From a virus (taxonomy: Duplodnaviria; Heunggongvirae; Uroviricota; Caudoviricetes): a DNA stretch of 17,757 nucleotides. Below, piece by piece: positions 3,729 to 17,757 of this stretch (the first letter of the stretch is position 1; every line of letters begins with the position of its first letter). Below the pieces are notes generated by a model. It searched no databases. It saw only the letters and a program-made list of their open reading frames with translations, and had not been told where the DNA came from. Made by a program: the position numbers and the translations under genes. The stretch is taken from the IMG/VR virus record IMGVR_UViG_2877285697_000007; one strand, written 5' to 3'.

Positions 3729-4328
3729 TCAGAATTTATAACCAACACCCACGATGAACCCGTCAGTGCGCCAGTCACCACTGCCGGAGCCTTCATAAGC
3801 AATATCAATAGCCACGGATTCGGTCGGGTTAAACTGCACGCCAGCTCCCCACGCCAGAGACGTGTTGCTGTGGCGACCGTCATCACTTCCGGTCAGCACG
3901 TCGTGCGTTTTCCCCTTGTTGTCAGTTACGCGGAGATAATCCCCGGAGAAAGTCGACACACGGCTGTAAGCCACACCCGCCATCGCATACGCGCTGAACC
4001 ATTCATTCACGCGCACAGACGGCCCCGCCATCACGCTGAACCAGCGGTTACGAACGGAATCTTCATGCCAGCGGGTATCGCTGTAACGGGTAAGCTGGCG
4101 ATTCTTGTCTCCTGCATAGCTGAATGACGTCACCATCCCCAGTGTGTCCGTAAACTCATAACGGTATTTCACGTTAATCCCGTTCAGATCATCGCTGCCG
4201 GGAACGTTCGTCGAGGCATGAAGATACCCCGCGCTCAGCGTGGACTGATGTTCAGATGCCCATGCAGGCGCACCGGATACGGCCAGACAAATGGCTGCGG
4301 AAAAAATGGCGGCATAAAGTTTACGCAT
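3729..4328 (-). CDS. lom: Outer membrane protein Lom (Ail/Lom/PagC family), 199 aa
   Basis: Start [24 protein letters not shown] looks like a signal peptide. C-terminus [24 protein letters not shown] is identical to my recollection of lambda Lom. The track ORF 3729-4586 is an upstream in-frame extension that runs into the IS4 end; the ATG at 4326-4328 with GAGAGG upstream is the likely start. Confidence 0.9.
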
Positions 4329-4360
4329 AATTACCTCTCGCTTTTCTGCAATAAAAAAGG

Positions 4361-4374
4361 CACCATTTCTGGTG
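4361..4374. repeat. Target-site duplication, left copy (CACCATTTCTGGTG), flanking IS4
   Basis: The same 14-mer occurs at 5801-5814, immediately outside both IS4 ends. Confidence 0.8.
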
Positions 4375-5800
4375 TAATGCCAGTCAGTTAAGCAACTGAC
4401 TGGCTCTTTTTCGGGGCTGTGGGGTATTTCCAGGGCCTCTCCTTTACCACTCTCGGGAAGGCCCTTCCCCTTCTCGTCGGTAATTTCACAAGTTGTCCCA
4501 TACTTGCAAGATCGCGCATCAGCTCCGGTATACGTCCCGGTGAAGCGCCCTGCAATGTCATCAGCATTCTCATCACCATTCCGCATGATTCTGAGAAACT
4601 CAGTTGATTCGGCCAGTAACCTTTCAGATGTTCCGCCATTTTAATCATCTGATATCTCACCAGATTATAAGCCAGTAAGACACCCCACAGCTCTTGCTCC
4701 ACAAGCTCCGGCTTTTTACTTCTCAGCGTCAGCCTGCTCAGTTGCATCGTCTGTTTTATCTCCCTGTATCCCAGTTCGATTTCCCAGCGATGACTGTACA
4801 GATCCGCCATTTCTCCTCCGGGGAAGCGCATGGCGTCCGTCATCGACGTCAGCAGATGGCAGACTTTTCCTTTGCGCGTCACGGTCAGCAGGCGGGCTGT
4901 CACTTCATTTCCCAGTCCCGGCCACTTTTTTCGTGCCTGCGGGCTGGTTTTCAGCTTCACCAGATGATCGCCTTTACCCAGTTTTCTGAGCTCTTCATAT
5001 TGCGCTCCCTTTCTGAGAGGTATCATCCAGTGGCGGTGTTCTCCCGCCAGGCTCCAGGCATTTAACAGTCCCAGTGAGTAATAACCTTTATCCATTAACG
5101 TCAGAGTGTTATCGCCGGTTTGTTCTATAAGTTGCTCAGCAAGCTCATTTTCGCTGTTCTTCATCGTGCCGAAGGCTGCAGCCGTCAGCAGATGGCTGGT
5201 CAGTTCCATCTGGCAGACCATTTTGACCTGCGGGTAGAGCGCCGGGTTCCCGGCATGTGTCTGGCGGGGGAAGGCTGCATCGTTCTCTGGTGTATCCGGT
5301 GTGCGCCAGAACACACCATCGATGGCCAGCAGGGTCAGGCCGCACCAGTGCGGATGCGGCGTGGCGTTATGCCAGAGCTGCGCTGTTTTCGTGAACACGC
5401 GGCGGACAGCCTCACTTCCCAGGCGCTGGCGGGCCTGAATAACGGCACTGGGGGCAACGAAGGGGCGATTGCCCGGCAGCATGATGTCCAGGCGATTCAC
5501 AATCTGGTGAAGAGGTTCTTTACGCTCAAGCGCCATGCCAACAATACACCAGACCATCATTTCGAGGGGAAGACGGCGCTTGCGTAGCGTTACAGTACCT
5601 GATTCGGCAAGGCAACGAGAGATGAGTTCGGGGTCGAGGTAATCCCCCAGAGAAGTCAGTGGATTACGCAGAGAATCGTAACGGGATACCAGATCAAGAG
5701 TCTGTCCAATGTGCATAAAAAAATCCGGAAACAAGTGAGCGTTTCCGGATTCTTACACAGCCACTGGATCGGTCAACTGATCCTTAACTGATCGGCATTA
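4375..5800 (-). mobile_element. IS4, complete, 1426 bp
   Basis: Terminal imperfect inverted repeats TAATGCCAGTCAGTTAAG (4375-) and TAATGCCGATCAGTTAAG (revcomp, ending 5800), 16 of 18 matching. Encodes an IS4-type transposase. The length equals the known IS4 size. Confidence 0.9.
4388..5716 (-). CDS. insG: IS4 transposase (DDE, IS4 family), about 442 aa
   Basis: Sequence [40 protein letters not shown]... matches recalled IS4 InsG. ATG at 5714-5716; the track's 5734 start is an upstream in-frame extension. Confidence 0.9.
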
Positions 5801-5814
5801 CACCATTTCTGGTG
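5801..5814. repeat. Target-site duplication, right copy (CACCATTTCTGGTG), flanking IS4
   Basis: Identical to 4361-4374. Confidence 0.8.
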
Positions 5815-5837
5815 CCCTTATATGGGTTATAACAATT

Positions 5838-8800
5838 TCAACGAATACTGATGCCGGAAGCGGCTTTTTTGGTCACAATCACCGTACAGTCGGTGATATT
5901 ACCTGCCCGCTGATTGCCTTTATGGAAAACCTTAAACTCCAGAGTGACGCTTCCCCTGCCACTCGGCATATCAATAACCGCACTGTAGCTACCGGGAATG
6001 GCCCCTTTAGTTTCTCTGGATGCGATTAATACACCGTTTTTGCGAACTTCAAAACCATAACCCGTGTATCTTGTACCTCCCGGGTTATTACCACTTCCCG
6101 GATCGCTATACGCTATTCCGTTAAAGATAATGGGCGGAATAATGATTTGACGGTCAAAGTTATGATCATCGCTGATGGTGACTGTAACCGTCCCGTTTGG
6201 TGTTTCCGTATTACCCCACGTACCAGCCTGTTTCGGGAATGATTTGGATACAGCTTTAACGAAGTCACCTCTGACCTGAGTCGCCTCCAGCATGCCCTTA
6301 ATCGTACAGTTTTCATTTACCGTGACATTGTTGAGCGTCCCGGCGTTCGCATTCACACTGCCACTGATATCCGCATTTTTAGCGGTCAGCTTTCCGTCCG
6401 GAGTCAGGGAAAATGCCGGTGGATTTCCACCACTGGTAATGGTCGGGGCCGTCAGGCGCTTCAGGAACACGTCGTTCATAAATATCTGATTGCCCTGCGC
6501 CACAAACATCGGCGTTTCATTCCCGTTTGCCGGGTCAATAAACGCGATACGATTGGCGGCAACCAGAAACTGACTCAGTTTGCCTTCCTCCGTGTCCTCC
6601 ATGCTGAGGCCAATACCCGCGACATAATGTTTGCCGTCTTTGGTCTGCTCAATTTTGACAGCCCACATGGCATTCCACTTATCGTTGGCATCCTTCCACT
6701 CTTTCGAAAACTCATCCAGTCTGCTGGCGTTATCCTCCGTCAGGTCGACTTTTTCCAGCAACTCCTTGCCGAGATGAGATTCGGTTATCTTGCCTTTGAA
6801 AAAATCCAGGTAACCTTCCGCATCATCGCTCGCCCGACCGACAGCCTCCACGAATGCCGATTTGCCAACGGTGTTCACACTGCGGATATAAAAGTAATAA
6901 TCATGGCCCGGTTTGATATTGATACTGGCGGCTATCCAGTACAGCCCCGTGCCAAGATAGCGGGCTGCGGTTTCAACCTGCCTGATATCGGTAATCCGCG
7001 TTTCCGAGAACCAGAACTCAAACTGTACCGTCGGATCATAAACCGCAAGATGCGGCGTGGCAGTTATCTGAAAATAGCCTGGCGTCAGCTCAATCTGTGA
7101 CGGCGCTGCCGGTGCGGCAATCCGGAACGATACCGATGCCGGATCGCCCTGCTGTCCCCACGCATTTACCGCCCGGACTGTCAGCCTGTAGTTCCCCAGC
7201 GCCAGTTGCGTGAAGCGGTATGTGGTTTCCGCCGTCCGGGCCGTGCTGACCAGCGGCTCACTGCCGTCATCCGCTGCCACGGTCAGGCGAAGCAGGAAAC
7301 TCACGCCCTTCACCACCTTCGGCGTGTCCCAGCGCGCCAGTACCTGATATTCCCCGCTGTCTGCGGTGACTTCGGCAGTCAGGTGCTGCACCGCTGGCGG
7401 CGTGACACCATTCACCGTGCCGCTCTGGTCACCGTCAAAGTGCGCCCCGTTATCCACGATGGCTTCTTTTTCAGGCACATGCTGCACGGCGGTGATGGCA
7501 TACGTACCGTCGTCGTTCTCACGGATACTCACACAACGGAACAGGCGCTGGCGCAGCGTCGGCAGCTTCAACCCCCACACGCTGTATCCGGCAACGCCGT
7601 CAGGAACCCGGCTCACTTTCACCTTCACGCCGTCGGTGACGGACTGAACCTCCACGCTGACCGGATTGCCACTTCCGTCAACCAGGCTTATCAGCGTGGT
7701 ACCGGAGGATGGCAGCGTGATTTCACGGTCGAGCGTCAGCGTCCGGGTCTGGCTGTTTACCGCCAGCACGCGACCACCGATGCTGATACCGGCATAGTCA
7801 TCATCGCAGATTTCAATGACATCGCCCGGTACATGGCGAAGCCCTTCGGCACCCACGCTGAAGTCCACGGTCTGCGTCTCCAGCAGTTCCGTTTTAATCA
7901 GCCACAGCCCGGCGCGGTGTGCCTGCCCCCGGCTGGTACAGCCAAAGGCATCCATCTTCGTGACGTTACGACCGTAACGGGCAATGGCCTGCGTATCTTC
8001 AACAAGCTCTGTCGCCGTCTCCCAGCCGTTATCCGGGTCAATCCAGTTCACCTCAACGGCATTATGGCGGTCTTTCAGGGCGCTGAAGCTGTAGCGGAAC
8101 GGCGCGCCATCATCCGGCATCACCACATTACTGCGGTTATAGGTCCACACCTTATCCGACGGTCGGTCCTGCACGAACGTCAGCGTCTGCCCGTTCCATA
8201 CCGGCATACAGCGCATCGCCGAGCAGAAATCACTGAGCACATCCCACGCCTTGCGCTGTGTGGTCAGGTACGCATTACAGGTGATGCGCGGCTCCGTGCC
8301 GCCAAAGCCGTCCGGCACTGACTGGTCGCAGTACTGGCCGATGACATACAGCGCCCATTTATCCACATCCGCTGCACCAAGACGTTTCCCCATGCCGTAG
8401 CGCGGGTGGGTCAGCATATCCCACAGACACCAGGCCATGTTGTTGCTGTATGCCGGTTTTAACGTTCCGTCCCAGATACCGCTGTATTGCCGCGTCTGCG
8501 GGTTATAGTTCGACGGCACCTGCAGAATGCGCCCGCGCAGATGATAATTACGGCTCACCTGCTGGCTGCCGAACTGCTCCGAGTCCACCTGTACGCCGAC
8601 CAGTGCCGTGTTCGGGTAGCACTGTTTCACATCGATGATTTCGGTGTATGACGACCAGAGCGTTTTGTTCTGCAGCTGGTCTGTGGTGCTGTCCGGCGTC
8701 ATCCTGCGCATCCGGATATTGAACGGGCGCGGCGGCAGGTTACCCACCACCACCGATGCCAGATACTGTGAGGTGGTTTTGCCTTTAATGGTGATGTCTT

Positions 8801-9251
8801 TTTCCGTCACCCAGCCACCGTTACGCTGTATCTGAACCAGCAGGCGGACTTCCGACGGATTCCGGTCCCCCTTTGAGGTGGTTTCCACCAGTGCCTGCAC
8901 GCCGAAAGTAAAACGCAGACGGTCAATGTTTGCCGACCTGATGGTGCGGGTGATCGGCGTGTCATATTTCACTTCCGTACCCAGCACCGTCTCGGAGCCG
9001 GAGGATTCAAAACCCTCCGGCGGTGTCTGCTCCTGCTCACCGGCACGGAACACCACCGTGACGCCGGATATGTTGGTATTACCTTCACTGTCCAGCACCG
9101 GCGTACTGTTCAGCAGCACGCTTTTTAATCCATCCACCGGACCTTCAACCGGCCCTTCACTGATGGCATCGATCACACTCAGCAACTGCGTGGATTTGAG
9201 GTTGTCCTTCGCTTCGCGCGGGGTATGCCCCTTACTGCTGCCTTTACCCAT
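5838..9251 (-). CDS. J: Tail tip / host specificity protein J (central tail fiber), 1137 aa
   Basis: Starts [34 protein letters not shown]... and tracks lambda gpJ for most of its length. It lies 60 bp downstream of I, as in lambda. Confidence 0.92.
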
Positions 9252-10605: not shown

Positions 10606-10954
10606 TTACTGCGAAAGTTTGTTAATGGAAAGGAAGCCGCCAAAGTTGCCGACGTTATTGCGAAACTTACAGCCGCTCAGGCATTTGCTGCATTTATCCT
10701 TCGTGATATCGGAGGTCGGCTGGTCATATTCATCCGCGACCGCCGGACCGTGATAACCGCACTCATCACCGCGATAGGTCCAGGTGCAGGTATTAGCCAG
10801 CATGATGCGCCCCGGAAAAACGGCACCATCCGTTTCCGTCGGTGTGGACAACACAAAGGAGGCACTGACCGCACTCAGTTCGCTGCACTGCTCTATGCGC
10901 CAGCGGCTGATCACCTCCTGCTCCGGATCGGCGTCGCTGTTTCCGTTGACGAAG
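10606..10954 (-). pseudogene. L: Tail tip protein L, 5'-truncated: only the C-terminal ~115 codons remain
   Basis: Ends ...CSKCLSGCKFRNNVGNFGGFLSINKLSQ like lambda L. Homology starts at FVNGNSDADPEQEVISRW; the first 9 codons of the track ORF (MAKFSVPLH) are encoded by the IS911 terminal repeat. Confidence 0.85.
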
Positions 10955-11026
10955 TGAAGTGGCACACTGAATTTGGCCACCTGAACAGAGGTGATATGCT
11001 CACCTCAGAACAACACAGGTGCTCCA

Positions 11027-12195
<1,169 letters not shown>

Positions 12196-12289
12196 CCACT
12201 TCACAAATGTGCGCTGGCTATTACGGCTGTAATGGCGATTTATTGTCTTGCTATTGTTCTTATGGATCGCCTTTCTGACTGATTTCACA

Positions 12290-12318
12290 TTGGCGAGGTA
12301 ACGGTAGTTAAGTAGAAT
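12290..12318 (+). promoter_or_regulatory. Candidate sigma-70 promoter of the hok mRNA: -35 TTGGCG, 17-bp spacer, -10 TAGAAT
   Basis: Hexamers read from the sequence. It sits just upstream of GGGTGCTTGAGGCTATCTGCCTCGG (12326-12349), which resembles the 5' leader element of plasmid R1 hok mRNA as I recall it. Confidence 0.45.
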
Positions 12319-12493
12319 GGCTGCGGGTGCTTGAGGCTATCTGCCTCGGGCATGAACACCAACGGCAGATAGAGAAAAGCCCCAGTTAACATTACGCGTC
12401 CTGCAAGACGCTTAACATTAATCTGAGGCCAATTTCATGCTAGACACATGTAGGTTAGCCTCTTACGTGCCGAAAGGCAAGGAGAAGCAGGCT

Positions 12494-12649
12494 ATGAAGC
12501 AGCAAAAGGCGATGTTAATCGCCCTGATCGTCATCTGTTTAACCGTCATAGTGACGGCACTGGTAACGAGGAAAGACCTCTGCGAGGTACGAATCCGAAC
12601 CGGCCAGACGGAGGTCGCTGTCTTCACAGCTTACGAACCTGAGGAGTAA
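12494..12649 (+). CDS. hok: Hok/Gef-family type I toxin, 51 aa
   Basis: MKQQKAMLIALIVICLTVIVTALVTRKDLCEVRIRTGQTEVAVFTAYEPEE: one N-terminal transmembrane helix and the conserved DLCE motif; closest recalled paralogs are HokD/RelF and HokC/Gef. RBS AAGGAGAAG precedes the ATG. An in-frame ATG at 12437 gives a 70-aa mok-like extension. Confidence 0.85.
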   Translation: MKQQKAMLIALIVICLTVIVTALVTRKDLCEVRIRTGQTEVAVFTAYEPEE

Positions 12650-12718
12650 GAGACCCGGCGAGGGAGAAATCCCTCGCCACCTCTGATGTGGCAGGCATCC
12701 TCAACGCACCCGCACTTA

Positions 12719-12749
12719 ACCCGCTTCGGCGGGTTTTTGTTTTTATTTT
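12719..12749 (+). terminator. Intrinsic terminator of the hok transcript
   Basis: Stem ACCCGC / GCGGGT with a TTCG loop, followed by TTTTGTTTTTATTTT. Confidence 0.75.
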
Positions 12750-12865
12750 CAACGCGTTTGAAGTTCTGGACGGTGCCGGAATAGAATCAAAAATACTTAA
12801 GTAGCGCGCAGGGATAAGAGGGATGGTCCCTTAAAGGGGAGAGCTAATTATCCGGAAGGATTCTG

Positions 12866-12949
12866 ATGATGAACATCGAAGAACTGCGTAAAATTTTTTG
12901 TGAAGATGGCCTCTATGCTGTGTGCGTTGAAAATGGAAATCTTGTTTGA
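12866..12949 (+). other. Small ORF (27 codons, MMNIEELRKIFCEDGLYAVCVENGNLV) apparently truncated by IS911
   Basis: Good RBS (AAGGA, 5-nt spacer). Its stop codon TGA is the first three bases of the IS911 copy B terminal repeat, so it is either a gene remnant or a chance ORF. Confidence 0.25.
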
Positions 12950-12954
12950 AGTGG

Positions 12955-14123
<1,169 letters not shown>

Positions 14124-14373
14124 TGGAGCACCTGTGTTGTTCTGAGGTGAGCATATCACCTCTGTTCAGGTGGCCAAATTCAGTGTGCCACTTCATTGAG
14201 AACCAGCACCACAACCTCCTGTATTGGACGTACACCAGTCCTGATGAATATGAGGCTGTCTCGTCAGTGATTCAATACAACTATTGGGTATAGTTTCTCT
14301 GATTTTTTCTGTGGAAATGGGGCTCAACCACTAGTCATTTAATACGCAAAGTCCGATACAAGCTAACCTTCTA

Positions 14374-14397
14374 GTCCGCTTTGAGCGAAAAGCGGAC
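14374..14397. repeat. Palindromic hairpin GTCCGCTTT / AAAGCGGAC with a 6-nt loop, about 60 bp past the HAD gene stop
   Basis: Read from the sequence. The same stem core recurs at 15840-15863. No T-run follows it on either strand, so it is not a classic intrinsic terminator. Confidence 0.5.
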
Positions 14398-14457
14398 GTT
14401 GGAAGTTTAAAACTCGCGAACTACTCAGCGTCCATTGATGCGTATTGTGTAACGTGA

Positions 14458-15096
14458 TTAACCACAGATGATATTGAAACGTTCTCCGGAAATCTTGACC
14501 ATAATGTCAGACAGTTCGCTGACGGCATGGGCTTCAGATGATCCCAGAGCGTCAGGCTGAACAGCTATTACCGAAGCTCCACTTGCCAGCCCTGCTTTTA
14601 TACCCGCAGATGCATCCTCAAATACCACGCATTCACCAGGCTCAAGGCCCAAAGCCAAAGCTGCTTTGATGTAACCCTCGGGACTTGGTTTTCCCGTCAT
14701 TACATCTTCTGCACACACCATTACTATGGGTAAGGGGAGATTAGCCGCTTTCATCCTGTTTTCTGCAAGCATTCTGCCTGCAGAAGTGACAAGTGCCCAG
14801 CTATCCGGTGGCAGTTTTGATAAGAGTGCAGCGGCCCCTTTTACTTCAGTAACGCCTTCTGTCGTGTTGATTTCAACCTCTTCGAGTGAGGCCGCGATTT
14901 TATTGGTTTTCTCACCTGCACCAATAAAATGCGTCAGTGTATCAATCGTTTGCCGCCCGTGTGCGTAAGCAATCACAGCCTGAGTATCAAGACCGTATTC
15001 TGCACAAAAATCTCTCCAGACGCTTTCCACTACGGCTGTTGAATCAACCAGCGTACCGTCCATATCGAATAAAAAACCCTTAGCGTTGAATATCAT
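14458..15096 (-). CDS. HAD-superfamily phosphatase (subfamily IA, sugar-phosphatase / beta-phosphoglucomutase-like), about 212 aa
   Basis: Motif I FLFDMDGTLVDS, plus VTSA, TGKPSPEGY and VVFEDASAGIKAG; resembles E. coli YfbT/HxpB-type hexitol phosphatases from memory. Start is placed at the second ATG (15094-15096), which has AAGGA 6 nt upstream; the track start is 15102. Confidence 0.8.
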   Translation of the reverse strand: MIFNAKGFLFDMDGTLVDSTAVVESVWRDFCAEYGLDTQAVIAYAHGRQTIDTLTHFIGAGEKTNKIAASLEEVEINTTEGVTEVKGAAALLSKLPPDSWALVTSAGRMLAENRMKAANLPLPIVMVCAEDVMTGKPSPEGYIKAALALGLEPGECVVFEDASAGIKAGLASGASVIAVQPDALGSSEAHAVSELSDIMVKISGERFNIICG

Positions 15097-15125
15097 TGCC
15101 ATTCCTTAATGGTTGCAGAAGAAAG

Positions 15126-15764
15126 TTAATCAAACCATGTTTTTTCATCACCTTTCGCTACTCTCAGGCTGACAGCAATCTGCTCAGGCACAATTCTTGA
15201 AAGCGACAATTCAGGCAGGTCGTTGACATCAAAAAAATCAGCATCGAGTGACTCATGGCTGATTGACAGGCTGCCACCTACTTCTTCACAGAGAAAAATC
15301 AGCTTGTAAACATGCCAGGGTAAAGGCGGATGGCCGTGAAGATTACGATCCCAAACTCCCAATAGTTTAGTCACTCTGACTTTTAATCCGGTTTCTTCTT
15401 CGACCTCTCGACGCACAGCTTCAGAAGGTGTATCTCCAACATCTGCCCATCCGCCAGGAAGACTCCATAATCCATCTGCAGCCTCTTTCACCATCAGAAT
15501 ACGATTATTACGCAGGATAAACGCACGCACATCTGTTTTGGGCGTCGCGTAACCCGTTTCCGATACATGAAACAAATCATTGCGGCTAATATCAAACTGC
15601 GAACTCAGCAGTCCAGCGGCAATTTCACGCAAGGCTTCATAGCGTTCCTTGTCAAAGACGTCTTTTGAATAGGTCAGGCCTGACTGCGCGAGGGCCTTTA
15701 GTCTCTGGGCAACAAAAATAAGCTTTTCTTGGGTCAACACTTCAGACATGTTTTTCATCTTCAT
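15126..15764 (-). CDS. NUDIX hydrolase with an N-terminal extension, ADP-ribose pyrophosphatase-like, 212 aa
   Basis: Nudix-box-like segment GGWADVGDTPSEAVRREVEEETGL (REVEEETGL fits REUxEExGU) preceded by a ~70-aa N-terminal domain. Start is ambiguous among three Met codons (MKMKNM). Stop is 23 bp upstream of the HAD start, suggesting an operon. Confidence 0.8.
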   Translation of the reverse strand: MKMKNMSEVLTQEKLIFVAQRLKALAQSGLTYSKDVFDKERYEALREIAAGLLSSQFDISRNDLFHVSETGYATPKTDVRAFILRNNRILMVKEAADGLWSLPGGWADVGDTPSEAVRREVEEETGLKVRVTKLLGVWDRNLHGHPPLPWHVYKLIFLCEEVGGSLSISHESLDADFFDVNDLPELSLSRIVPEQIAVSLRVAKGDEKTWFD

Positions 15765-15839
15765 TTATGTATTCAGAGTTCCTGTTAAGGATACTGCTCA
15801 ATTCAATGAAGAATAACAAATGCATCTGGCACCTGCTAT

Positions 15840-15863
15840 GTCCGCTTCTGGCACAAAGCGGAC
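15840..15863. repeat. Palindromic hairpin GTCCGCTT / AAGCGGAC with an 8-nt loop, between the 133-aa gene and the NUDIX gene
   Basis: Same stem sequence as the hairpin at 14374-14397; the two bracket the NUDIX-HAD pair. Confidence 0.5.
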
Positions 15864-15960
15864 AACCACGCCAGATCTACCCTGTGCCATGAAAAATGAG
15901 AATGTCAATTCACTCCTGAACTAATGCTTTTTAATCTAGTAACGTCTAAAATACCTAACA

Positions 15961-16362
15961 TTATCCCTGATAAAATGCCAGTATGCGCTGCATAACTTCA
16001 CTCATCCGGCACTCGCGACAGATTATGTTTAGGCGACTGTCGTAGCGACGTATTTCTCCATCAGGTAACGACCAGATAAGGTCCGGATCAACCACAGCTG
16101 TTTTCTTCACCTTTGCCCTCGATAGTTTTTTGCGGGCGTTTTGCCAGTCCTTACGCGCCTGTTCAGACGGGAATAACCCGTAGCCGGAGTTGTATACATC
16201 GCCACTGGCTACCAGCTCTCTGGCAAGAACGCTCATCAGATATCTAGTCGCACCTGTTTTAGCTTCCAGTTGCCGTAACGTCTCACGACCGCTCTGGCGC
16301 ACGAGTTCCACCACCTGCCCTTTAATTTTTTCCCGCTCTTCTTGTGTAAAAACTTTTGCCAC
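15961..16362 (-). CDS. Hypothetical small basic protein, 133 aa, with a possible helix-turn-helix (TLRQLEAKTGATRYLMSVLAREL)
   Basis: ORF with a GTG start at 16360-16362 preceded by GGGGGA. I recognise no family; the HTH assignment is by eye only. Confidence 0.5.
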   Translation of the reverse strand: MAKVFTQEEREKIKGQVVELVRQSGRETLRQLEAKTGATRYLMSVLARELVASGDVYNSGYGLFPSEQARKDWQNARKKLSRAKVKKTAVVDPDLIWSLPDGEIRRYDSRLNIICRECRMSEVMQRILAFYQG

Positions 16363-16402
16363 AAGTCCCCCTTAAAATTACCTCATGACCTGAAATCAAA
16401 AC

Positions 16403-16927: not shown

Positions 16928-17757
16928 TTGTTCTTTTTTTAAGCAGCCATCTGATGATATTTTTCCCTGAAGGCTGCCGGGGAGATATTCCCCAGACGAG
17001 AGTGACGACGCTGACGATTGTAGAAAATCTCAATGTATTCCCGTATTACTGAGATGGCTTCATCCCGGTTATTAAAACGATAGTGGCTCAGGCTCTCATT
17101 TTTCAGCGTTCCCCAGAAGCTTTCCATCGGAGCGTTGTCGTAACAGTTACCTTTACGCGACATTGATGTTTTCAGACCAGACTGCTCCTGTATGACCCGG
17201 TAATCGTATGCGCAGTACTGTGAACCTCGATCAGAGTGGTGGATTAGCCCGGCAGGTGGGCGCTGGCTCCTGAGCGCCATAAACAGGGCTTTACCTGTCA
17301 GCTCTTTTGTCATGCGCTCTCCCATGGCGTAGCCGACAATTTCGCACGTATAAACATCTTTGATGCCAGCGAGGTACAACCATCCCTCCTGTGTGGCAAC
17401 ATACGTCAGGTCCGCCACCCAGACCTGATTTGGTGCTGTAGGAGCGAACGTCTGGTTCAGCAGATTTGGCGCAACTGGCAGATTGTGGTTCGGGTTCGTA
17501 GTCGCTCTGAACTTGCGTTTCTGCTTACAGCGTAGCCTTAGCTCCTTACGAAGACGTGCCAGTCGGTCACGACCAACGATGATGCCATTCTCTGCCAGCT
17601 CCGTCTGGAGCCGCCGGGTTCCATATGTTTCGCGAGTGCGGATATGTGCCACCTTAATCTCCAGTTTTAGCCGCTCATCACTTTGTTTTCTGTCTGAGGG
17701 TTCATGCTGTACCCAGTTGTAATAACCGCTCCTGGATACACCAAATACCTGACACAT
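16895..17757 (-). mobile_element. IS3-family element, IS600-like, partial (continues beyond the window end)
   Basis: Terminal sequence TGAGGTGTACTGGCAATAGCGGACAC resembles IS3-family inverted repeats (compare IS3 CAATAGTGGACAC). Encodes an IS600-like OrfB. The inner boundary is approximate. Confidence 0.65.
16939..17757 (-). CDS. IS3-family transposase OrfB (IS600-like), 5' end outside the window
   Basis: MCQVFGVSRSGYYNWVQ... with a DDE/rve core (VWVADLTYV, HHSDRGSQYCA, CYDNAPMESFW). The ORF reaches the window edge; orfA and the frameshift site are not in the window. Confidence 0.85.
   Translation of the reverse strand: MCQVFGVSRSGYYNWVQHEPSDRKQSDERLKLEIKVAHIRTRETYGTRRLQTELAENGIIVGRDRLARLRKELRLRCKQKRKFRATTNPNHNLPVAPNLLNQTFAPTAPNQVWVADLTYVATQEGWLYLAGIKDVYTCEIVGYAMGERMTKELTGKALFMALRSQRPPAGLIHHSDRGSQYCAYDYRVIQEQSGLKTSMSRKGNCYDNAPMESFWGTLKNESLSHYRFNNRDEAISVIREYIEIFYNRQRRHSRLGNISPAAFREKYHQMAA

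Follow-up and report, generated by a model that had tools for sequence, protein, structure and literature searches.

Paired palindromes that probably mark the junctions of exchangeable accessory-gene cassettes in lambda-like and P2-like prophages

The 17,757-nt stretch of DNA considered here (IMG/VR virus record IMGVR_UViG_2877285697_000007, called the window throughout) carries two short hairpins that share a stem and stand on either side of a NUDIX hydrolase gene and a HAD-family phosphatase gene. A preliminary description of the sequence had suggested that they might be a repeat resembling repetitive extragenic palindromic (REP) elements, a binding site for a protein, or recombination sites delimiting a cassette, and that they did not look like ordinary terminators. 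What, then, are these palindromes, and what do they do at the edges of a two-gene unit? The comparisons reported below make it highly probable that they are the junction palindromes of an exchangeable accessory-gene cassette, one whose place in its lambda-like prophage is a variable slot with the DUF977 gene on one side and hokD on the other.

The pattern GTCCGCTT-N8-AAGCGGAC occurs at two sites, positions 14374-14397 (hairpin 1) and 15840-15863 (hairpin 2), and nowhere else in the window; a scan relaxed to three arm mismatches or fewer returned these two hairpins only. Hairpin 1 (GTCCGCTT TGAGCGAA AAGCGGAC) has a perfect 9-bp stem and an 8-nt loop, and hairpin 2 (GTCCGCTT CTGGCACA AAGCGGAC) a perfect 8-bp stem and an 8-nt loop unlike that of hairpin 1. 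The stem 8-mer is present in five copies, four of them hairpin arms, against 0.65 expected; none of 200 shuffles reached five copies, and two perfect 8-bp hairpins with the same stem appeared in none of 200 block shuffles of the window. The stems are stable as single-stranded DNA (about -10 to -17 kcal/mol in 64-nt contexts, with z-scores of -2.0 to -5.3). The bracketing of the gene pair was likewise borne out, Pfam identifying the NUDIX gene at 15126-15764 and the HAD gene at 14458-15102, both on the minus strand.

The slot was compared across 5426 complete E. coli genomes. Both flanks of the cassette are present in 3446 of them, yet the NUDIX-HAD pair lies between the flanks in only 18; the module as such was found in 22 of the 5426, every copy at 99% identity or more. 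In the other genomes sharing the flanks, left-flank homology ends at window positions 14388-14402 and right-flank homology resumes at 15838-15854, that is, in the hairpins, the individual right-flank matches beginning at 15838/15840 or within hairpin 2. The same slot holds a DUF5677 gene, a DUF4209 gene (on the opposite strand) or hypothetical genes in the genomes sampled, and with each of these the outer arm and the loop are retained and the inner arm is altered. In these sampled genomes the left junction is invariant through CTTCTA GTCCGCTT TGAGCGA, and the 9 nt that follow vary by cargo (AAAGCGGAC, AGACCGGAC, TGAGCGGAC, GAAACGGAA and AAAACAGCC). The right junction is invariant as TGGCACA AAGCGGAC AACCACGCC, and the arm to the left of it is variable. 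An IMG/VR search anchored solely on the hokD-side flank, and hence made without bias towards the hairpin, gave 123 loci in which some 30 distinct cargos abut the hairpin on that side; its outer arm and loop stay the same with all of these, and its inner arm changes with the cargo. The DUF977-side flank, AACCACGCCAGATCTACCCTGTGCCATG, was found joined to at least four different cargos.

One backbone thus carries many cargos, and the converse was also observed. The NUDIX-HAD unit occurs in the P2-like phages Peduovirus P24C9, 10W and 11W, between the tail-fibre assembly gene G and the sheath gene FI, which is the classical Z/fun position. The window and P24C9 are 99.46% identical over 1491 nt; the match takes in both hairpins and stops exactly at their outer feet, beyond which the sequences are unrelated. 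A third backbone, on IMG/VR contig L098, has the pair beside gpA, a Dam methylase gene and a DinI-like gene, i.e., at the P2-like TO end. Three of the eight positions at which the window and the P2-like copy differ (14377, 14382 and 15856) belong to an outer arm or to the loop base next to it, as do two of the six differences from the L098 copy (14374 and 14381, in the outer arm of hairpin 1), the outer arm and adjacent loop stretch that was scored amounting to 18 nt. The inner arms and loop cores are free of differences from either copy, and those in hairpin 1 are confined to the outer arm and the first loop nucleotide (14374, 14377, 14381 and 14382).

At the P2 Z locus itself, 31 distinct cargos of about 0.8-4.7 kb were found between constant AATCTGACA GTCCGCTC TGTGCCA and TCGCTCA AAGCAGAC TGTCAGATT. 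Five of 28 cargos from the lambda-like slot recur in this P2-Z sample, with 95.5-100% identity up to the hairpin. When the cargos common to lambda-like and P2-like phages are taken together, NUDIX-HAD included, the outer arm is backbone-specific in six of six (AAGCGGAC in lambda-like and AAGCAGAC in P2-like phages), and the inner arm, in variants such as GTCTGCTT, GTCCGCAT and TTCCGCTT, is identical across both backbones in four of the six and differs by one base in the remaining two. A graph of flank clusters gave the same picture, with one backbone flank joined to eight cargo flanks and the NUDIX-side cargo flank joined to five backbone flanks. The DUF4209 cargo was present in two backbones, one of them adjoining umuDC-like genes, and further cargos include HEPN/SIR2 proteins, a LysR gene together with a short-chain dehydrogenase (SDR) gene, and an MFS transporter.

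An exact-pattern scan of IMG/VR returned at least 120 loci with many different flanks and, among the matches listed, two recurrent loop classes, YTGGCACA and TGAGCGAR. Read on the plus strand of the window, there are two classes of site, which have the same 8-bp arms and the 7-nt cores TGGCACA (A) and GAGCGA (B); among 205 copies having two arm mismatches or fewer, 194 have a loop of 8 nt. The B palindrome, on the hokD side, is hairpin 1 (14374-14397): its outer arm (14374-14381) and loop core (14383-14388, GAGCGA) belong to the backbone, and the last loop nucleotide (14389) and inner arm (14390-14397) belong to the cassette and vary with the cargo. The A palindrome, on the DUF977 side, is hairpin 2 (15840-15863), in which the inner arm (15840-15847) and first loop nucleotide (15848) are the cassette part, the loop core (15849-15855, TGGCACA) and outer arm (15856-15863) the backbone part. 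Since the outer arm goes with the backbone, the inner arm and one loop base go with the cargo, and the core is common to both, each hairpin is a chimera. By sequence comparison, the boundaries, this chimeric anatomy, the combinatorial shuffling of cargos and backbones and the low copy number are established, and the cassette-delimiting part of the original recombination-site proposal is strongly supported by homology that breaks in the hairpins, by the same cargo in other backbones and by some 30 cargos in one backbone.

Junctions of the same kind are found inside the slots. A 3.67-kb module is followed in five contigs by five different modules, always across one internal hairpin, GTCTGCTT TGTGCCA+N+arm. 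Of 60 unique slots, 17 hold one or two internal junction hairpins, which are of A type, of B type or a B-linker-A pair, and all those with an assignable loop type have the same polarity as the terminal hairpins. The cargo genes themselves show no polarity relative to the sites: 13 of the 31 P2-Z cargos are forward with respect to A and B, 14 reverse and 4 mixed, so that a fixed orientation of cargo was rejected. Structure as the driver of conservation was rejected too. Watson-Crick pairing occurs at 68-78% of arm positions, a C.A mismatch is central in 69% of P2 B sites, and these frequent mismatches are without compensation; the arms are conserved as sequence.

Two further occurrences involve a single or a degenerate copy. 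Plasmid pDETEC13 (210 kb; L481, 6004-6027) has a perfect single A-type hairpin, and immediately downstream of it come a DUF1778/GNAT toxin-antitoxin pair and then hok/gef genes, an order that resembles the hairpin, relBE, hokD order of the Qin prophage of E. coli K-12. In Qin (L127, 3013-4028), the genes flxA and ydfV are flanked on one side by a B-like hairpin, GTCCGCTA AGAGCAAG AAGCGGAA, and on the other by a degenerate A hairpin, GGCTGCTC CTGGCACA AAGCGGAC; the latter is inside the annotated ydfV open reading frame (ORF), just upstream of relBE-hokD, and the polarity is opposite to that of the backbone. The surroundings of hairpin 2 in the window have a feature of their own. The A-core heptamer occurs three times in 64 nt (15826-15889). 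One copy, CTGGCAC, is on the cargo side at 15826-15832, a second is in the loop of hairpin 2 (15848-15855), and the third, on the backbone side at 15883-15889, has the inverted form TGTGCCA. An outer stem, ATCTGGC/GCCAGAT, surrounds the hairpin. Older junctions may have left these features behind, or they may belong to a larger site.

The element is the same as one already on record in P2-like phages. GenBank entry AJ512685, the P2-EC67 proviral Z-region, carries annotations for a left and a right inverted repeat, and the present hairpins form the inner ends of both. The left repeat ends GTCCGCTC TGTGCCAG AAGTGGAA and the right one starts GTCTGTTT TTCGCTCA AAGCTAAC, with the same arms and loop cores as in the window (GTCCGCTY-TGTGCCA... 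and ...TCGCTCA-AAGCRGAC). According to a later review, Nilsson, Karlsson and Haggard-Ljungquist proposed in 2004 that site-specific recombination occurs at the repeats of the P2-like Z-region. Recent papers on P2/P4 hot spots make no mention of hairpins, palindromes or terminators and leave open how exchange takes place, and full-text literature searches with the hairpin sequence strings returned primers and short hairpin RNAs only. The likeness to the Z/fun inserts extends to cargo, with the same NUDIX-HAD cassette at that locus in P24C9 and the same cargos in different repeat-bounded contexts (NUDIX-HAD in three backbones, and five further cargos); the two differ in that the P2 slot lies between G and FI and the slot of the window between DUF977 and hokD of a lambda-like prophage.

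These findings suggest the following mechanism. The slot would be laid out as backbone, B site, one or more modules, A site, backbone. Crossovers falling in the palindromes, either in the invariant core itself or at its edge, would replace, add or recombine modules. A would pair with A and B with B, which would leave each hairpin with one arm from the backbone and one from the module. Two crossovers, one per site, could then swap a module between phages having no other homology, and so between the lambda-like slot, the P2-like Z and TO loci and the umuDC-adjacent slot. One crossover at an A site plus one at a B site would amount to replacement, not to insertion or excision. In such a scheme the palindromes would be a cause of the exchange rather than its passengers, as we infer from the comparisons above.

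Insertion of cassettes into one ancestral hairpin was also considered and was rejected, as it predicts an empty site, for which searches of IMG/VR gave no true match. The 21 matches from one of these searches proved to be an unrelated 43-nt palindrome and not empty slots. This palindrome, AATCTGACAG-N23-CTGTCAGATT, lies at a sharp homology boundary of another mobile element (L250-L270), and the inverted flanks of the P2 Z slot are the same as its 10-nt arms.

Several points weigh against the view that the palindromes are sites of cassette exchange. No true match was found in IMG/VR either for a single hairpin between the lambda-like or between the P2 flanks or for fused loops (TGTGCCA+TCGCTCA), and no excised form was encountered; the absence of empty slots agrees with a published survey in which the main P2 hot spots are never empty (PMC13586616). 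Some inner arms are badly degenerate, which makes many hairpins unable to form. A recombinase is neither encoded in the cassettes nor common to the backbones. The mapped junctions all lie between arm markers, within or beside the invariant core, but homologous crossovers predict the same, and their positions fit homology-driven exchange equally well, the hairpin being the only shared sequence; the marker positions have too little power to tell the two kinds of crossover apart, and by a rough estimate, not a computed statistic, a uniform-crossover model is compatible with them (p of about 0.3). Finally, the evidence is comparative throughout, and the density reached by the motif in Hyphomicrobiales (up to 16 hairpins per 8 kb, see below) would put a genome at risk if these were recombination sites, and is more in keeping with a REP.

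If the palindromes are sites of exchange, what acts on them? A trans-acting site- or structure-specific recombinase with a 7-nt overlap is a real possibility, somewhat short of an even chance, and we would say the same of recombination through short homology, in which phage or host functions such as RecET/Red would make use of the 24-nt identity; something else is unlikely, though by no means negligible. The anatomy favours a dedicated enzyme. Arms of 8-9 nt are inverted around an invariant 7-nt core at fixed spacing, as in the core sites of tyrosine recombinases (lox, FRT or dif type, with 6-8 bp of overlap), and there are two heterospecific cores. Where an internal junction has a B-side arm next to an A core, only 8 nt of homology are available for a crossover, and this too counts for such an enzyme. 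We know of no recombinase for these A and B sites.

The strongest competing explanation concerns this agent and leaves the cassette boundaries as they are. It holds that the palindromes are linkers in the sense of Susskind and Botstein, served by no dedicated enzyme and kept since single-strand annealing systems (RecET, Red) or RecA can swap the cassettes that they flank. A RecE-like exonuclease is indeed encoded in a related prophage, no recombinase was found, the arms tolerate many substitutions, and slots that are never empty are what a double-crossover replacement would produce. Moreover, the hairpin is the only sequence common to the lambda-like and P2-like contexts, and any homologous crossover between them must therefore fall there. 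Yet the homology is just 24 nt, and 8 nt at the internal junctions of B arm and A core, lengths no greater than the minimum on which Red/RecET can act in practice. Nor does this account explain why the loop is always 8 nt, why two cores stay invariant across at least four backbones or why the same hairpin occurs in Alphaproteobacteria. We regard homology alone as a plausible account, though not one that we favour.

A more specific proposal, put forward here tentatively and with more doubt than conviction, is that the palindromes are heterospecific core sites (TGTGCCA and TCGCTCA, with arms GTCCGCTT/AAGCGGAC) of a trans-acting recombination system that exchanges cassettes among unrelated hot spots of temperate phages and plasmids, and that is evolutionarily tied to a REP-like family in Hyphomicrobiales. 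The hot spots meant are the lambda-like slot, the P2-like Z and TO loci and the umuDC-adjacent and hok-adjacent slots. Four candidates for the agent were dropped. The arms are unlike dif or cer, which speaks against Xer. They are also unrelated to those of the sites of the shufflon recombinase Rci, even though the 7-bp sfx core, GTGCCAA, matches the A loop. The HUH nuclease gpA of P2 is absent from lambda-like phages. Large serine recombinase genes, lastly, stand beside hairpin arrays at the ends of GC-rich IMG/VR contigs (L057 191-1801, with DUF2924, and L110 5465-7018), and these are probably prophage integrases next to host repeats.

We also weighed whether the motif is, as first suggested, a REP-like selfish palindrome, that is, a mobile repeat spread into intergenic gaps by a REP-associated tyrosine transposase (RAYT) of the HUH type or something similar, with its association with cassette edges being secondary. 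In E. coli this is not supported. The A type occurs in 3604 and the B type in 2563 of the 5426 genomes, each with a median of 1 copy and maxima of 6 and 5, respectively, and the copies of both types are essentially all at slot junctions, and a genome-wide REP was rejected there on the copy number. REP elements and bacterial interspersed mosaic elements (BIMEs) are recombination hot spots, and they resemble the present hairpins in being short, GC-rich, imperfect intergenic palindromes, two variants of which alternate with conserved linkers. They differ in being present in hundreds of copies rather than about one per genome, and the E. coli REP consensus, with its GTAG tetranucleotide, is unrelated to these hairpins, which have no such tetranucleotide.

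The picture is different in Hyphomicrobiales. The identical 24-mer GTCCGCTT TTGGCACA AAGCGGAC and close variants of it form a high-copy BIME-like tandem repeat in metagenome-assembled genomes (MAGs) of Hyphomicrobiales/Xanthobacteraceae, the sampled loci, 824 kb in all, containing 429 hairpin copies at a local density of as many as 16 per 8 kb (L202, L141, L180, L187, L189 and other genome_contigs loci; L055, L057, L081 and L110). In these Hyphomicrobiales/Xanthobacteraceae (Pseudolabrys) MAGs, the intergenic tandems have a period of about 45 nt, 8-nt loops (TTGACCCA, TTGGCCCA, TTGGCACA) alternate with 9-nt loops (TCGGGGGTA), and the hairpins are spaced by conserved 21-nt linkers. This repeat counts for a selfish palindrome, as do the tandem B-linker-A pairs with conserved linkers that occur in enteric phages. 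On the other side, in addition to the low numbers in E. coli, the copies switch from backbone to cargo sequence at a fixed point, a pattern not expected if whole repeats had inserted independently, and no RAYT was seen, though no search aimed at one was made. A selfish repeat is on balance an improbable explanation of the slot junctions. A stem and loop common to the Hyphomicrobiales repeat and to the boundaries in enteric phages is accounted for by none of the hypotheses considered here.

A function at the level of RNA is a shade less probable still. The hairpins would then be transcript insulators, processing sites or stabilisers of 3'-ends, functions known from REP sequences, that each independently expressed moron needs. 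They are intergenic on both sides of the cargo, their stems are stable (with z-scores down to -5.3), and the A site, when read in the direction in which the upstream operon is transcribed, is TGTGCCA in four backbones. Nevertheless, both hairpins lack a following T-run on each of the two strands, and a consensus terminator scan made no call, so that an intrinsic (Rho-independent) terminator, with a stem but no U-tract, was rejected, in agreement with the first impression of the sequence. A known RNA family was rejected as well, as Rfam gave no match at E<=1 for window positions 14000-16400 or for the alphaproteobacterial arrays. Furthermore, a canonical terminator is present after the B site in P2-like phages, cargo genes are found in both orientations relative to A and B, the polarity in Qin is opposite to that of its backbone, and the stems are often mismatched without compensation. 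The chimeric pattern of the arms would be left unexplained.

Integron attC sites were rejected as a model for these palindromes, there being no IntI, no core motifs and no ORF polarity, and the size being wrong. Among the ORFs of the window there is no tyrosine recombinase, and in a related prophage the only integrase is that of the phage itself, encoded at the end of the prophage some 7 kb away from the slot. The parallel with integrons lies in promoter-independent modules bounded by imperfect palindromes, in arrays, in chimeric junctions and in the same cassette in different platforms. However, attC sites measure 57-141 nt, against 24-nt palindromes with a perfect 8-bp stem here; the RYYYAAC/GTTRRRY cores and extrahelical bases of attC were not seen, the flanks having no consistent core motifs when read by eye; and integron cassette ORFs are co-oriented, in contrast to the lack of orientation bias and the two site classes per slot observed here. 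Chance, or trivial duplication of a terminator-like hairpin, to which we give virtually no credence and for which nothing but the smallness of the motif speaks, is refuted by the 8-mer counts, by the shuffles and by the presence of the motif at homologous junctions in hundreds of independent contigs.

Cassette exchange at paired junction palindromes has partial counterparts in other systems. The pdif modules of Acinetobacter plasmids are cargos such as resistance genes and toxin-antitoxin pairs, flanked by XerC/XerD sites and found in many unrelated backbones. Like the present elements, they have short sites with inverted arms and a central spacer as module boundaries, and their mechanism was first inferred from comparative data; their spacer is 6 nt rather than 7-8, and the arms found here are, by eye, unlike dif, cer or pdif half-sites. 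Phage morons and the linkers of Susskind and Botstein are comparable as self-contained extra genes between essential genes, with short conserved border sequences. Classical morons, however, are described as having a promoter and a factor-independent terminator, whereas the palindromes have no U-tract and are present on both sides of the cargo whatever the gene orientation. A further parallel is engineered recombinase-mediated cassette exchange with heterospecific lox or FRT sites, where identical inverted arms around different spacers cause a cassette to be replaced and never simply excised. We draw this comparison because of the A/B architecture and the absence of empty slots; lox and FRT arms are 13 bp long, against 8-9 bp here.

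The window is E. coli DNA from a lambda-like prophage with many insertion sequences (IS), matching at 99.9% a prophage that adjoins rspB/ynfA, for instance in strain AR_0017. On the minus strand, the order is replication genes, DUF977, hairpin 2, NUDIX, HAD and hairpin 1, with hokD and rem next in an intact relative. The exchangeable module, with its 8-9 nt inverted terminal arms, would span 14389-15848 (minus strand). Its NUDIX gene (15126-15764, minus strand; Pfam NUDIX and Nudix_N) encodes a protein with a weak match to the PADLOC candidate PDC-S07, and the best NCBIfam match of the product of the HAD gene (14458-15102, minus strand; Pfam HAD_2) is a sugar phosphatase model, below the cut-off of that model. 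The backbone flank upstream of hokD (14196-14373), which is kept in thousands of E. coli genomes, is ended at 14195 by IS911; in NZ_CP024886 it runs on into hokD. The opposite flank (15864-16362, minus strand) includes the DUF977 gene (15961-16362) and belongs to the replication region of the prophage.

Around the slot, the prophage has been damaged by insertion sequences. Two IS911 copies, 100% identical and inverted, lie at 10955-12203 and 12947-14195. The 743-nt segment between them, with a Hok/Gef ORF (12437-12649), is inverted relative to NZ_CP024886, and the left copy cuts the tail gene L (10606-10980), which joins the tail genes directly to the hokD region. The arrangement at 10955-14195 is an IS-mediated inversion or deletion. 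An IS4-family element (4356-5819), with a 448-aa transposase (4388-5734, minus strand) and 37-nt terminal inverted repeats, separates a J-like tail tip gene (5838-9251) from lom (3729-4586). Beyond 16896 the window is no longer similar to the intact relative, and an IS3-family transposase ORF (16939-17757) that runs off the window comes next; the replication region is therefore interrupted too.

The lambda-like slot described here adds to a kind first noted in P2-like phages in 2004, and it extends a known but neglected observation rather than defining a new category. Hot spots of temperate phages are reservoirs of anti-phage defence and other accessory genes. According to the latest large survey of P2/P4 hot spots, it is unknown how exchange with unrelated elements takes place, and homologous recombination would need flanking homology (PMC13586616). 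The palindromes supply that flanking element, as a 24-nt site pair at the module edges in both lambda-like and P2-like phages. Modules that are 95.5-100% identical are shared by the two kinds of backbone, and one plasmid has an A-type hairpin beside a toxin-antitoxin pair. The question of how cassettes shuttle becomes directly testable. The palindromes also provide a simple sequence signature for delimiting accessory modules in prophages, and they bear directly on the movement of accessory and defence cassettes between phages.

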